Positions 3,001 to 43,385 of a DNA stretch of 64,000 nt are shown here, piece by piece. The stretch spans positions 2,546-66,545 of the forward strand of contig JAUMYO010000004.1 in NCBI GenBank assembly GCA_030528605.1. The letters run 5' to 3'. The position numbers and the translations under genes were made by a program. Within the stretch, counting starts at the first letter, position 1. Each line of letters opens with the position of its first letter. The stretch is from Peptostreptococcaceae bacterium (GTDB lineage: Bacteria > Bacillota > Clostridia > Peptostreptococcales > Filifactoraceae). The notes beneath the pieces were generated by a model. The model made no database searches, had not been told where the DNA came from, and worked only from the letters and a program-made list of their open reading frames with translations.

Positions 3001-4107
3001 AACTCCGTAGATGATCTTTATATCACTCTTGGCTCCTTGTTCCATCGCATCCGGAAAGGCTTGTACGACTCCATGATCTGTGATCGCGATCGCGGAATGA
3101 CCAAACTCTTTCGCCTGCTTTATAAGATCCTTTACATTCTCGATCGCATCCATCGATGACATATTACTGTGAAGGTGAAGCTCGACACGCTTGGTATCCG
3201 CATCATCTTTTCGCTTAAACTGCTTGGCGATATTGATATCCTTTAATGTGGCTACGATCTCTTTTTCATAGCTGTCAAAAGCAATATCCGCTTTGACCTT
3301 GATATAACTACCTTCTTTGATAAGCTCGCTCTCATCTTTCCAAAAAACTTTGCACATGATAGAACCTGTATTATCATTCATAGCAAAAGTTTGGATGACG
3401 GATCCTTTATTAAGTTTTCTTGAGGAAGACGCAAAAGTCCGTCCTTCAAAAACAACATTATTCTCTTCAACGCCGAGCTCTGATATCATTTTGGGATCAT
3501 TCATTATAGATCTTCCGCGGATCACTCCGTCCGGTCGATCTTTTTTAGGTTGCGTTTTCTGAGGTTGAGAAAGTTCCTTCATTTTTTCCGTTAATAGCTT
3601 TTCACTATCTTCAAAAAATCGGTCCCTATCAATATCATTTGCAAGGTCTTTCACCACGACCTTCACATCCAGACCCAAGCTCATCGCGATCGACCTCTTG
3701 ATCTGAGTATCAAGCTTCTTGCTCTCAATATTATTTTTAATGACTTTATTGTTTACATTGAGAACGATCTCTTTCTTTTCATTCCCCAGATCTTCGCAGT
3801 CTACAGACACACAGCTTTCGATCTTCTCGCTTACCGGACAAAACTTGCGAAGGATATATTCAATATTAGGGAGATAATTTACGATCCGATCCTTCACATC
3901 ACTATTACCGGTACATTTTGTCAATATAGTTACTTTTTTTAGTATCGGATTTCGCTGTTCACATTCTTTTTCCAACTTGTGCAGGATCTCGTAGTTGATG
4001 ATCTTATCCGATCGGATCAAAAACTCTAATTTAGCTTCATTTTTATATAGTTTGATCCTCTCAAGTTCGATAGCATTCTCTTCTAAATATCGTTTAATGA
4101 TCTGCAT
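1..4107 (-). CDS. polC: DNA polymerase III, PolC type (first ~1369 codons; 3' end runs off the left window edge)
   Basis: Absent from the ORF track because there is no stop in the window. Minus-strand translation from ATG 4107 gives MQIIKRYLEENAIELERIKLYK..., then PHP motif KRVELHLHSNMSSMDAI, exonuclease motifs FVVFDIETTGLS and AHNSDFD, and core GSRGSVGSSF. Follows ispG as in Firmicutes synteny. Confidence 0.95.
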   Translation of the reverse strand, partial: MQIIKRYLEENAIELERIKLYKNEAKLEFLIRSDKIINYEILHKLEKECEQRNPILKKVTILTKCTGNSDVKDRIVNYLPNIEYILRKFCPVSEKIESCVSVDCEDLGNEKKEIVLNVNNKVIKNNIESKKLDTQIKRSIAMSLGLDVKVVVKDLANDIDRDRFFEDSEKLLTEKMKELSQPQKTQPKKDRPDGVIRGRSIMNDPKMISELGVEENNVVFEGRTFASSSRKLNKGSVIQTFAMNDNTGSIMCKVFWKDESELIKEGSYIKVKADIAFDSYEKEIVATLKDINIAKQFKRKDDADTKRVELHLHSNMSSMDAIENVKDLIKQAKEFGHSAIAITDHGVVQAFPDAMEQGAKSDIKIIYGVEGYFLDDTKKVLKEYNSLLLSQPFVVFDIETTGLSSANDRITEIGAVKIVDGAIVDRFSRLIDPERKLSPKIIELTGITDEMLAGKPKIEEVLPEFMNFVGDAMFVAHNSDFDTGFIKVNCERLGLAYNTKAIDTVSVSRALLTDLKSHRLNVVAKKLGIKLENHHRAVDDAQATAEIFLRFLEMFKEQGVITLDQVNQKFVDTDHKTKRPNHIVILAKDLIGLKNLYKIISDSHINHFYKVPRILKSVLSKYRQGLLIGSACESGEVYQAVLNNRPMDEIETIVSYYDYLEIMPWENNEFMIKKGIVNSKEDLKQINKKIWDLGNRSGKLVVATGDVHYIERSDGVIRDIFKAAQKFAKDPDNGSLYFRTTEEMLEEFSYLGEEDAYRVVVENTNRIADQIETFKPIPDGTFPPIIEGSDVELREMCYEKAKRIYGDPLPELVKNRLDRELNSIIGNGYAVMYIIAQKLVTRSIEDGYLVGSRGSVGSSFAATMSDITEVNPLPPHYICRDCKYSEFITDGSIASGMDLPDRSCPNCGAKLIKEGHDIPFEVFLGFEGDKEPDIDLNFAGEYQARAHKYTEDLFGKDHVFRAGTIGTVAEKTAFGYVMKYMEDYDAKINNAEVMRLRDKVTGVKRTTGQHPGGVMVVPDYKDIYDFTPIQYPANDVRSEVLTTHFDYHSISGRILKLDILGHDVPTIIRMLEDFTGINATEIPLDDETTMSLFTSPKALGCDLSAISCETGTLGIPEFGTKFVRQMLMDTRPTTFAELLQISGLSHGTDVWLNNAQDLIRSNIVTLKDVISTRDDIMNYLIQKGLEPLTAFKIMEDVRKGKGLKEDHIGSMLENDVPQWYIDSCQKIKYMFPKAHAAAYVMMAFRIAYFKVFHKEAFYAAFFTTKAEDFDLEIILKGKEIVLANLKAIEAKGNEVTAKEKNMGIVLEMAYEMHLRGVELLNVDLYRSDATKFKLIDNKLLPPLISIPGLGETVAYKIAEESKKEFFSIE

Positions 4108-4119
4108 AGTCCCTCTTTA

Positions 4120-5166
4120 CTACATCTTTTCAAGCTCCGATAACAAAACCGATTCGATCTCTTCCTCTTTTATCTTCCGGATGATCTCTCCTTTTTTGAA
4201 TAAAAGTGCTTCGCCATTCCCTCCGGCGATCCCTATATCTGCTTCTTTCGCCTCTCCCGGACCGTTTACCGCACAACCCATGATCGCTACTTTAAGCGGT
4301 TTTTTTATGTTTTCAACTTTTTTTTCAACTCGTTCCGCCAATTCAATGAGATCGATCTTTGTTCGGGCACATGTCGGACAAGAGATGATCTGAATACTTT
4401 CACGATCCAGATCCAGTGCACCTAAAATATTTTTTGCCGCATAGATCTCTTCTACAGGATCTGCCGTAAGAGACACCCGGATCGTATCCCCGATCCCTTT
4501 TAATATCAGATGTCCTATCCCGATCGCTGATTTTACCGTACCTCTTTGCGTCGTGCCGGATTCTGTGATCCCTAAGTGCAAAGGATAATCCGAGATCTCG
4601 GAGAAGGTCTCATAAGCTTCTATAGTCCTAAAGATATCACTTGCTTTTAGTGATACAACAGTATTGTAAAAATCAAACTCTTCAAGGACTTTAATATGTT
4701 TGAGTGCGCTTTGTACCATCGCCATAGCACCATTCCCATACTCGGCAATAACAGATTTTTCTAAAGAACCTCCATTGACACCGATGCGTATCTTGATATT
4801 CCTAGTCTTGGCTTTTTGGACTATCTCTCGTACACGATCAAGGGGACCGATATTTCCCGGATTGATACGAAGACCGTCTACTCCATTTTCGATCGATCGA
4901 AGGGCAAGACGATGATCGAAATGGATATCAGCTACCAAAGGTATATTTATTTTTTTGATGATCGTTTTTATCGCTTCTGCGGACTCCATATCGGGTATAG
5001 ATGCTCTGACAAGCCGACAGCCCGCATCTTCCAGTCGTCGGATCTGCTCTACGGTTTTTTCTATATCTCTAGTGTCCGTGTTGGTCATCGACTGGATGAT
5101 AATGGGATTATTATTTCCGATCTTTATATTTCCGACAGAGACTTCTTTTGTTACTCTTCTATCCAT
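4120..5166 (-). CDS. ispG: 4-hydroxy-3-methylbut-2-en-1-yl diphosphate synthase
   Basis: 348 aa ORF; GcpE-like motifs IIIQSMTNTDT, LRINPGNIG, SCPTCART, MGCAVNGPGEA. Confidence 0.95.
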   Translation of the reverse strand: MDRRVTKEVSVGNIKIGNNNPIIIQSMTNTDTRDIEKTVEQIRRLEDAGCRLVRASIPDMESAEAIKTIIKKINIPLVADIHFDHRLALRSIENGVDGLRINPGNIGPLDRVREIVQKAKTRNIKIRIGVNGGSLEKSVIAEYGNGAMAMVQSALKHIKVLEEFDFYNTVVSLKASDIFRTIEAYETFSEISDYPLHLGITESGTTQRGTVKSAIGIGHLILKGIGDTIRVSLTADPVEEIYAAKNILGALDLDRESIQIISCPTCARTKIDLIELAERVEKKVENIKKPLKVAIMGCAVNGPGEAKEADIGIAGGNGEALLFKKGEIIRKIKEEEIESVLLSELEKM

Positions 5167-42547: not shown

Positions 42548-42872
42548 CTTCAGATCCTCTCTCTCATGTTGCCTTAATAATATAAACATTATTATATCAT
42601 CAACAATCTATATTGCAAGCCTCAATCAAAAGTATCTTTTCAGCTTTCGATTTCATAATATTTTCATTTTGTCATCATAATAACGGATTACATCTTCTTT
42701 TCGTCTTAATATCCTAAAACACCCTAAAAATCAACGATTATATTTAATCTTGACCATATTGGATATCTCAAAAAAACGCAGACTTTCGATAATATTTTTG
42801 ACGGATTTCTGCCGTCAAAAGTGCCTATCAATTATCCGCTCTTCAAAAAAGTTATTTTTTTTGCTAAATGTA

Positions 42873-42901
42873 TTGACTATTGGTTACCAATGTTGTATAA
42901 T
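42873..42901 (+). promoter_or_regulatory. near-consensus sigmaA promoter facing away from the lysis genes
   Basis: TTGACT, 17 nt, TATAAT, followed by AAGGAGGTGAT. Confidence 0.6.
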
Positions 42902-42918
42902 ATACTTGTAAGGAGGTG

Positions 42919-43056
42919 ATAGACACGGAAGAAGAAGTCAAATGGATAGTAGCAATAACAGCAGTGATCAATCTAATAAATGCACTGCTTACACTATCCG
43001 AAAAAGCAAAAAGCGCTCCAAAAAAGAAGAAGCGCAAGGGCAACAAAAAGCGCTAG
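42919..43056 (+). CDS. candidate small membrane peptide with polybasic tail (start codon unresolved)
   Basis: Open frame ..(I)DTEEEVKWIVAITAVINLINALLTLSEKAKSAPKKKKRKGNKKR*, ending 8 nt before a terminator. Strong SD at 42911-42917, but no ATG/GTG/TTG at normal spacing; ATA 42919 or GTG 42916 are the only options. Confidence 0.3.
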   Translation: MDTEEEVKWIVAITAVINLINALLTLSEKAKSAPKKKKRKGNKKR

Positions 43057-43063
43057 CCACGCC

Positions 43064-43088
43064 GAGGGGGTTGCCCTCCCCCTCTTTT
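43064..43088 (+). terminator. rho-independent terminator
   Basis: GAGGGGG-ttgccct-CCCCCTC followed by TTTT. Confidence 0.65.
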
Positions 43089-43092
43089 AATT

Positions 43093-43121
43093 ATCATAAC
43101 ACAGAAAGGAGTTAAAATCAA
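43093..43121 (-). promoter_or_regulatory. candidate antisense promoter directed into the 3' end of the small peptide ORF
   Basis: Minus strand TTGATT, 17 nt, TGtTATGAT (extended -10). Confidence 0.4.
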
Positions 43122-43122
43122 A

Positions 43123-43209
43123 ATGAAAATTATTTTGTTGATAGCAATTCTTACCTTGATCATAAATATATATAACAAATCGAAAAGAGGTGGAAAATGG
43201 AAAAAATAA
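43123..43209 (+). CDS. 28-aa hydrophobic peptide with basic tail
   Basis: Below the track cutoff. ATG 43123 behind AAGGAG (11 nt spacing); MKIILLIAILTLIINIYNKSKRGGKWKK*. Overlaps the next ORF by 13 nt. Confidence 0.45.
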   Translation: MKIILLIAILTLIINIYNKSKRGGKWKK

Positions 43210-43385
43210 ACAGGAATGTTATTATCGGTAAAGCCGGAGGAACAGCCGGGAAGTCCTCCGTAAATTATAAGATCTCTTTGCCCGCTGATTGGGTCAAACA
43301 GATCGGAATTACTCCTTATGATAAGTCTGTGATTATGGAGTTTGACGGATGGCAAATAATCATAAAAAAAGAGGGTAGCAAATAA
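43197..43385 (+). CDS. AbrB/MazE/SpoVT-family DNA-binding protein
   Basis: 62 aa; YKISLPADWVKQIGITPYDKSVIMEFDGWQIIIKKE fits the swapped-hairpin AbrB pattern. Confidence 0.8.
   Translation: MEKINRNVIIGKAGGTAGKSSVNYKISLPADWVKQIGITPYDKSVIMEFDGWQIIIKKEGSK

Follow-up and report, generated by a model that had tools for sequence, protein, structure and literature searches.

Contig JAUMYO010000004.1 of a Peptostreptococcaceae bacterium was analysed over a stretch of 64,000 nucleotides (the window), and the locus considered here, at 42873-43121, lies at the end of a prophage. Host genes stand to its left (valS, tRNA_edit, a cation efflux gene and His_Phos_1), and on the minus strand to its right are phage genes for an M15 endolysin, an LLH holin, XhlA and tail proteins. 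The plus strand of the locus carries a promoter (P1), a Shine-Dalgarno (SD) sequence, a small open reading frame (ORF1) and an intrinsic terminator, and beyond these lie ORF2, coding for a second small membrane peptide, and ORF3, coding for a small DNA-binding protein. On the opposite strand are a promoter and a terminator for a predicted antisense RNA. We put at even the chance that the locus makes up the first part of a small accessory (“moron”) cassette with the build of a type I toxin-antitoxin pair.

An earlier description made from the letters alone (the sequence-only reading) had placed 42873-43121 at the end of a prophage, and the flanking genes bear this out. It had treated the locus as a self-contained module, whereas the locus is rather the front of a larger unit with ORF2 and ORF3, neither of which it described. 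The individual sequence features that it listed, including the consensus promoter, the strong SD and the terminator, are all where it put them; only the gap between the stop codon and the terminator differs, being 7 nt and not 8.

The product of ORF1 has an acidic N-terminus, a single transmembrane helix (an 18-residue hydrophobic stretch) and a tail of lysines and arginines. This design is scarce in the window. When all six frames were surveyed from stop to stop for frames of 25-100 aa, only two of 1336 combined a transmembrane stretch with at least six Lys/Arg in the last 14 residues, and these were ORF1 and the adjacent ORF2 frame. The open frame runs, as had been proposed, in the frame of GTG 42916 to the TAG, and its translation is the peptide quoted at the time. 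The sequence-only reading was also right that a canonical start is lacking, as no ATG, GTG or TTG is suitably spaced from the SD. Its list of candidates did not include the ACG at 42925, which is in frame and sits at the expected start position, 8 nt after AGGAGG.

The significance of this codon is seen in the one homologue of ORF1. An exhaustive HMMER pass over 1.84 billion representative proteins returned exactly one match, P0116 (E 7.5e-4), a 40-aa peptide (MEDKTEWLVLITSVVNLITALMVLKEKSSSGKKSKGKKKR) that aligns with ORF1 end to end and is 54% identical over its full length. The two share 22 of 40 residues, the replacements within the helix are conservative, and no other reading frame is kept as well as that of ORF1. 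P0116 is encoded in a different prophage, which is represented by a contig of an NCBI assembly (L110) and by a Logan contig identical to it (L111). Its TTG start aligns exactly with ACG 42925. Since the homologue has TTG at just this place, the missing start is read as a near-cognate or mutated start codon, and the comparison argues that ORF1 is a conserved peptide gene and not a non-coding RNA. Neither of the start sites considered previously (GTG 42916 and ATA 42919) is then needed, and of the two possibilities left standing at that time, non-canonical initiation is favoured and a non-coding RNA is not.

The peptide does not recur alone. L110 reads, in order, TTGACT-17-TATAAT (2212-2240), GGAGGTGA, 6 nt, the TTG start, the peptide, a terminator and a 32-aa membrane peptide. 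Further downstream are small genes and then a minus-strand cassette of holin, M23 endolysin and XhlA, and the whole arrangement is thus found in an independent prophage, again beside a holin/XhlA lysis cassette. The sequence-only reading had counted a lack of conservation in related prophages as evidence against it, and the frame is kept in that of L110. Within the window lineage, a sister strain (L041) shows 43 differences from the window in 8.2 kb and has the same ACG start. The only difference inside the locus, 43020 A>T, is synonymous in ORF1 and lies in the loop of the antisense-terminator hairpin described below.

The +1 frame that overlaps ORF1 is likewise open in both lineages (42942-43115, 57 aa, in the window; 2284-2460, 58 aa, in L110). 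It was considered as a real gene starting at ATG 42942 and rejected, as it is less conserved than ORF1 (41% identity with four gaps), lacks an SD and crosses the terminator; it is probably incidental.

Other searches for relatives of ORF1 were negative. None was found in a word-indexed collection of 5.8 billion proteins, queried with the single sequence or a two-sequence profile; by tblastn at E up to 10 in 50,697 phage genomes, Clostridioides difficile phages included; in IMG/VR by a degenerate coding pattern or an exact DNA pattern; or in peptide-pattern scans of IMG/VR and JGI metagenomes using the single sequence and the alignment. A structured DNA pattern (GCAAGGGCAA..CGAGGG..CCCTC) gave 11 matches in IMG/VR, all in unrelated high-GC phages, and was discarded. 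The locus region returned nothing by blastn against phage genomes, and no Rfam family matches it beyond sub-threshold chance matches. In Pfam, ORF1 has no match above cut-off (only DUF2973, 16.7 bits vs 22.2), and neither ORF1 nor ORF2 belongs to a family in NCBIfam, PHROGs or PADLOC.

Transcription from P1 is predicted to start near 42908. Promoter-like hexamer pairs are common in this AT-rich window (8 observed vs 4.2 expected); those of P1, with their spacing, recur in L110 and in the promoters of ORF3 homologues. The stem-loop of the ORF1 terminator spans 43064-43084 and is followed by TTTT within a modest U-tract (UUUUAAUUAU). At the equivalent place in L110 (2399-2419) is GAGGGAG-CTTGCCC-CTCCCTC plus a T-tract, so that the two stems differ by one compensatory change, from a G-C to an A-U pair. 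The plus-strand transcript folds with a z-score of -2.2.

The minus-strand promoter that had been reported from the letters alone is also found, and a counterpart of it is kept in L110. It matches the consensus at 9/12 positions and has the TG extension, and transcription from it is predicted to start near 43086. The L110 counterpart reads TTGCAT-17-TGtTATTAT, and the 17-nt spacing is the same though the start of ORF2 shifts by 2 nt. Dinucleotide shuffling of the ~55-nt segment produced the corresponding motif, TTGnnn-N13-15-TGnTAnnnT, in 0.8% of cases for the window and in 0.14% for L110; it occurs 15 times in the 128 kb that make up both strands of the window.

A terminator on the same strand, which the sequence-only reading did not describe, completes the predicted antisense unit. 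In both lineages it sits inside the region coding for the Lys-rich tail, ~85 nt past the promoter. The window hairpin is GCGCUUC-UUCUUUUUU-GGAGCGC (43035-43013), followed by UUUUUGCUUUUU (43012-43001), and its 9-nt loop caused it to be missed by the terminator scan. The same scan reported GCTCTTCTTGCCGGAAGAGC + TTTTTTCTTT in L110 at 2368-2349, which as RNA is GCUCUUC-UUGCCG-GAAGAGC + UUUUUUCUUU. The third pair of the stem is G-C in the window and U-A in L110 (GCGC/GCGC to GCUC/GAGC), and one pair of the window hairpin is U-G, in place of which the plus strand would have mismatched C and A. The hairpin is kept although the tail residues encoded there are poorly conserved (SAPKKKKR vs SSSGKKS). 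Promoter and terminator together are predicted to delimit an antisense RNA of ~85 nt that covers the last 17 codons of ORF1 and the ORF1 terminator. Its 5′ hairpin is the complement of that terminator, with one compensatory pair relative to L110, and the L110 RNA is predicted to fold into a 5′ hairpin, 29 unpaired nt and the terminator. Thus the peptide, both promoters and both terminators are kept in the second lineage. As a separate observation, AAGCGC occurs three times in the tail-coding segment 43008-43055 (twice as AAAAAGCGCT), and alternative GCGC-based hairpins are available on both strands.

The features of the locus are listed in Table 1.

Table 1. Coordinates of the features at the prophage-end locus, numbered from the first nucleotide of the window
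Feature	Position	Strand	Description
Promoter P1	42873..42901	+	-35 TTGACT 42873-42878, 17-nt spacer, -10 TATAAT 42896-42901; 11/12 consensus positions
Palindrome	42879..42891		Perfect 13-bp palindrome ATTGGTTACCAAT in P1 spacer; putative ORF3 operator
Shine-Dalgarno	42910..42920	+	AAGGAGGTGAT, 11 nt; GGAGGTGA kept in L110 at 2253-2260
ORF1	42925..43056	+	43 codons + TAG (43054-43056), ACG start; (T/M)EEEVKWIVAITAVINLINALLTLSEKAKSAPKKKKRKGNKKR
Predicted antisense RNA	43001..43086	-	~85 nt; 5′ hairpin, linker, terminator hairpin, U-tract
Intrinsic terminator of ORF1 transcript	43064..43088	+	GAGGGGG-TTGCCCT-CCCCCTC + TTTT; 7-bp stem, 7-nt loop
Antisense promoter	43093..43121	-	-35 TTGATT 43121-43116, 17-nt spacer, extended -10 TGtTATGAT 43101-43093
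ORF2	43123..43209	+	28 aa, MKIILLIAILTLIINIYNKSKRGGKWKK; transmembrane stretch + Lys/Arg tail
ORF3	43197..43385	+	62 aa, AbrB/MazE/SpoVT-type small DNA-binding protein, phrog_2329

ORF2 has the same design as ORF1. Its SD, AAAGGAG, is at 43105-43111, and the frame overlaps the start of ORF3 by 13 nt. The 32-aa peptide of L110 (2454-2552), which likewise combines a transmembrane stretch with a Lys/Arg tail, is its counterpart at the equivalent position and is 41% identical. Hol_Tox (PF16935) matches ORF2 at 13.4 bits, below the 23.3 cut-off, and no relatives were returned by the searches, including tblastn of the phage collection at E up to 10. The idea that small transmembrane peptides generally accompany ORF3 was dropped, as they are absent from ~100 loci with ORF3 homologues, including the closest one (70% identity). 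In another contig (L109, 1-132), a hydrophobic frame ending in ...NAITIILCLVLIIRILRSK* takes the place of ORF2 before the closest relative of ORF3, P0002; this protein is 89% identical to ORF3 and is followed by the same endolysin, and the contig ends 132 nt upstream of it.

ORF3 belongs to phrog_2329 (E 1.5e-16), a family of unknown function. It matches Pfam PF04014 at E 0.004 and 17.6 bits, below the 24.7 cut-off, and its profile matches AbrB N-domains. More than 100 homologues were found; among them are several with PF04014 or with the name [quoted passage not shown] given by NCBI, and the relatives point to gut Clostridia (Lachnospiraceae). An AlphaFold model (pLDDT 86) has MazE, AbrB, SpoVT and VapB as its best fold matches, with weak E-values of the kind expected for a half-domain of 60 residues. 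The match of ORF3 to an AbrB/MazE/SpoVT-type domain is therefore weak but consistent.

A link between ORF3 and P1 is provided by the palindrome within the promoter. P1 can be written as TTGACT-ATTGGTTACCAAT-GTTG-TATAAT, and the palindrome is the sole site of its kind in 64 kb. Some 100 loci with ORF3 homologues were gathered from IMG/VR, GTDB genomes, isolated phages and other assemblies. A perfect 13-bp palindrome lies inside the -35/-10 spacer in 45 of 92 distinct upstream regions, and most of the others have an 11-bp form. The sequence of the arms varies with the kind of locus: Lachnospiraceae-type loci have ATTGG-N3-CCAAT in the spacer, while Acutalibacteraceae/Oscillospiraceae-type loci and Blautia phage Montmirail (with four copies) have ATTCG-N3-CGAAT, so the arms co-vary (TTGG/CCAA vs TTCG/CGAA). 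Additional copies are frequent just past the -10 box, within a divergent promoter or in front of the following gene, in its promoter. L110 serves as a natural control: it lacks an ORF3 homologue, and the palindrome is missing from the promoter that corresponds to P1. From this association we infer that ORF3 binds the palindrome at 42879-42891 and represses P1.

In almost all loci the ORF3 homologue begins 15-34 nt (median 29) past the -10 box. The window is atypical in having 295 nt between the -10 box and the start of ORF3, a space taken up by ORF1, its terminator and ORF2. Only a weak internal candidate for a plus-strand promoter is present (9/12, at 43091-43118). Because ORF3 stands behind a terminator with a modest U-tract and the internal promoter is weak, its expression probably depends on read-through, and it would then act back on P1.

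Several further observations were made on the ORF3 family. Its members often stand directly upstream of an integrase, for example a tyrosine integrase in the L002 group (L002, 3294-4289), and a large serine recombinase is downstream of the homologue in L044 (3189-4535); this adjacency hints at a role in the control of integration and excision or in a lysogeny switch. An apparent ATA start in homologues of the L002 group was set aside when an in-frame ATG overlapping GGAGG was found. In L081, L087, L098 and L101 (~3001-4350), the ORF3-like domain forms the N-terminus of a ~190-aa protein, and in such loci of Oscillospiraceae, Acutalibacteraceae and Faecalibacterium it is followed by a conserved protein of ~277 aa (MTVKLVTNEKVAETSSKGNQEKW...). 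Neither protein has a Pfam match, and a HipA-like identity for the 277-aa neighbour was dropped for that reason; the pair may be an uncharacterised two-gene module. The window leader TATAAT-ATACTTGTAAGGAGGTGATAGAC-ACG-GAA (42901-42930) resembles the leaders of the distant L081-type homologues, TATAAT-TCTTGTGGTGATAGTT-ATG-GAA. In view of this likeness, the promoter, SD and first codons of ORF1 may derive by recombination from an ORF3-type cassette, or the likeness may be a coincidence.

At the prophage boundary itself, between the host His_Phos_1 gene and the prophage promoter, is a perfect inverted repeat, TTTTGACGG-ATTTCTG-CCGTCAAAA, at 42797-42822. A minus-strand promoter-like site, TTGACG-18-TATTAT (42818-42789), overlaps it. 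The repeat may terminate transcription in both directions, or it may belong to the attachment region. L042, a metagenome contig that is identical to the window, breaks at about 42856.

How these parts might work together can be outlined from the sequence and from characterised systems. That the locus is a type I toxin-antitoxin-like pair at a prophage end, with added controls in the window lineage, is a proposition we hold to be evenly balanced. P1, a strong promoter of the sigma-A type, would give an mRNA of ~180 nt that ends at the ORF1 terminator, and from this mRNA would be made a 43-residue single-pass membrane peptide, presumed toxic, with its Lys/Arg-rich tail in the cytoplasm. The extended -10 promoter just beyond the terminator would give the ~85-nt RNA, ending at its own hairpin and U-tract and fully complementary to the last 17 codons and 3′ end of the ORF1 mRNA. 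In txpA/RatA, bsrG/SR4 and yonT/SR6 of Bacillus subtilis, and in systems of C. difficile, the RNAs pair at their 3′ ends, whereupon RNase III cleaves the toxin mRNA and it decays. By analogy, pairing here would bring about decay of the ORF1 mRNA and keep the peptide in check for as long as the cell carries the prophage.

Two extra brakes are envisaged in the window lineage. The first would be the ACG start, TTG in the sister lineage, at which initiation would reach ~1% of AUG or less. The second would be the ORF3 operator in the P1 spacer: read-through of a leaky terminator would yield ORF3, which would repress P1. Taken as a whole, a cis-antisense RNA, a near-cognate ACG and an AbrB/MazE-type repressor reached by terminator read-through would form a hybrid circuit on one toxin promoter. 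This fuller version is offered tentatively and is rather unlikely, as is the origin that it would imply, namely recombination of an L110-like two-peptide cassette with an operator-regulator cassette widespread in prophages of gut Clostridia.

There are points that weigh against a toxin-antitoxin-like pair. ORF1 shows no sequence relation to any known toxin family in Pfam, NCBIfam, PHROG or PADLOC, and with an ACG start, translation in the window lineage may yield very little of its peptide or none. The proposal does not explain ORF2, whose position and design are conserved. The -35 boxes of the antisense promoter are weak, and the predicted antisense RNAs fold no better than shuffles (z -0.7 and -0.85). 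The hairpin in the tail is nearly palindromic and forms on both strands, and it may simply end transcripts that run out of the prophage. Conservation amounts to one comparison, between the only two lineages known, and each compensatory change to a single event, and the DNA identity of the module is roughly even, at 61-76% across all segments (about 65% overall).

The strongest rival is that ORF1 and ORF2 are ordinary, non-toxic membrane-protein genes of a moron, serving for example in superinfection exclusion or in the modulation of lysis or of a membrane process. The minus-strand hairpin and U-tract would then insulate the host from prophage transcription, and the minus-strand promoter would be fortuitous or unimportant. 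A place between the lysis cassette and the prophage end, with a promoter and terminator of its own, is typical of morons; membership of ORF1 in no toxin family, the unremarkable folding z-scores of the putative antisense RNA and the frequency of promoter-like matches in AT-rich DNA all fit as well. Less easily accommodated is the recurrence of an extended -10 with 17-nt spacing at the same place in both lineages (chance 0.14-0.8% per segment), with a conserved terminator following at a suitable distance on the minus strand, and the design of the peptide is that of characterised type I toxins. A harmless moron is judged unlikely, though it keeps appreciable weight.

The start codon bears on a second rival, in which a former type I pair has decayed: the toxin would have been silenced by a change of ATG or TTG to ACG, while ORF2, ORF3 and perhaps the small RNA are still used. 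The ACG stands at the position of the homologue's TTG and is present in both sequenced strains, and loss of the start codon is documented for a second toxin, yoyJ, in other Bacillus species (PMC5848175). In E. coli reporters, initiation at ACG reaches 0.1-1% of that at AUG, and the product has an N-terminal Met (10.1101/063800); the same range applies to the class of non-near-cognate codons that includes it. Yet the frame of ORF1 is intact and its only polymorphism is synonymous, and the SD is exceptionally strong at 11 nt. The sister lineage also has a non-AUG start, which suggests weak initiation as a feature of the family, and very little expression can suffice for membrane toxins of great potency. 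Decay of the module is considered improbable.

The position of the terminator bears on a third, in which ORF1 would be a leader peptide and its translation would govern how far transcription runs on into ORF2-ORF3. Ribosomes stalling along the poly-Lys tail or at the TAG would occupy the 5′ arm of the terminator and block termination. In keeping with this, a gap of 7 nt lies between the stop codon and the terminator stem, and ORF3, with its putative operator in P1 and the best internal promoter at only 9/12, is probably transcribed through the terminator; its homologues in relatives begin 15-34 nt past the -10 box. Attenuation is nonetheless quite improbable: L110 has the ORF1-terminator-ORF2 unit without an ORF3 homologue, conserved transmembrane helices are unusual for leader peptides, and the minus-strand promoter and terminator are left unaccounted for.

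Finally, a small RNA or ribosome-binding decoy with an exposed SD and an incidental open frame would suit the lack of a canonical start, the SD-like sequence at the very 5′ end and the plus-strand fold, but is very improbable: the amino-acid sequence is conserved and its replacements are conservative, the homologue starts at a canonical TTG, Rfam has no match and the peptide design is otherwise unique in the window.

A type I toxin-antitoxin-like pair can also be compared with described systems, and, at the sequence level, signals for the peptide and antisense-RNA genes by which type I systems are generally defined are found here, except for the canonical start codon in the window lineage. The closest described architecture is yonT/yoyJ/SR6 of SPbeta, to which the present locus, known from sequence alone, can be matched in outline. 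In that system, two toxin ORFs stand in tandem, and SR6 arises from an extended -10 promoter between them and overlaps at the 3′ end; decay of the mRNA of the first toxin, yonT, depends on RNase III, and in the gene of the second toxin the signals for initiation are weak or mutated (PMC5848175). The window likewise has, in a prophage, two tandem small ORFs of toxin type behind one promoter, and a predicted antisense RNA, comparable with SR6 (~100 nt), that would arise from an extended -10 promoter between the ORFs and extend over the 3′ end of the first. Weak translation signals or a mutated start on one toxin, and further genes on the read-through transcript, are additional points in common. 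In contrast, there is no sequence similarity between the two, and a clean intrinsic terminator follows ORF1 and none follows yonT. SR6 covers the ribosome-binding site of yoyJ, whereas the predicted antisense RNA stops short of that of ORF2. The window promoter also differs in carrying the putative operator of a protein regulator.

Prophage-borne pairs of C. difficile are characterised by AGGAGG 7-8 nt before the start, a hydrophobic N-terminus, a positive tail and a convergent antisense RNA (PMC7699646). ORF1 resembles CD0977.1/RCd11 and its relatives in its prophage location, in the length of the peptide (within 35-50 aa), which is hydrophobic towards the N-terminus and rich in Lys in the tail, in AGGAGG 7-8 nt from the start position and in a convergent antisense RNA, here predicted. 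It is unlike the C. difficile toxins, which start at ATG, in starting at ACG, and its homologue at TTG. The sequence-only reading had drawn this comparison, and it holds for peptide design, location and antisense layout. It does not extend to sequence homology, as neither ORF1 nor ORF2 matched CD0956.2/CD0977.1-like toxins by tblastn (E up to 10) of the phage collection with its C. difficile phages.

Dual control of a membrane-peptide toxin, by a small or antisense RNA and by a protein repressor at the toxin promoter, is known from the LexA-controlled tisB/istR-1 of E. coli. The putative repressor here would differ from that host SOS repressor in being a phage protein of the AbrB/MazE type, encoded downstream on the same strand. 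ORF3 is like the AbrB/MazE/SpoVT swapped-hairpin proteins in its size of ~60 aa, its PF04014-type domain and its predicted beta-alpha-beta fold, and like type II antitoxins and AbrB-type repressors in having palindromic putative operators that overlap its own promoter. Unlike AbrB/MazE-type antitoxins, it has no cognate protein toxin adjacent to it in the window, and its relatives usually stand alone behind their operator-promoter, often beside an integrase or recombinase.

The locus is thus a candidate for a new type I toxin-antitoxin-like family, known from two prophage lineages. If the proposal is true, the family would come from prophages related to those of Lachnospiraceae-like gut Clostridia, a group hardly charted for such systems. 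Annotation pipelines are blind to ORF1, since it has no canonical start, and it is absent from the 5.8-billion-protein collection. It would also be a natural case of toxin dosage set by a non-AUG start, and the locus may link control by an RNA antitoxin with a protein repressor. For phrog_2329, whose function is unknown, a clear and co-varying operator is gained, from which the regulon of this common prophage regulator can be predicted in more than 100 loci.

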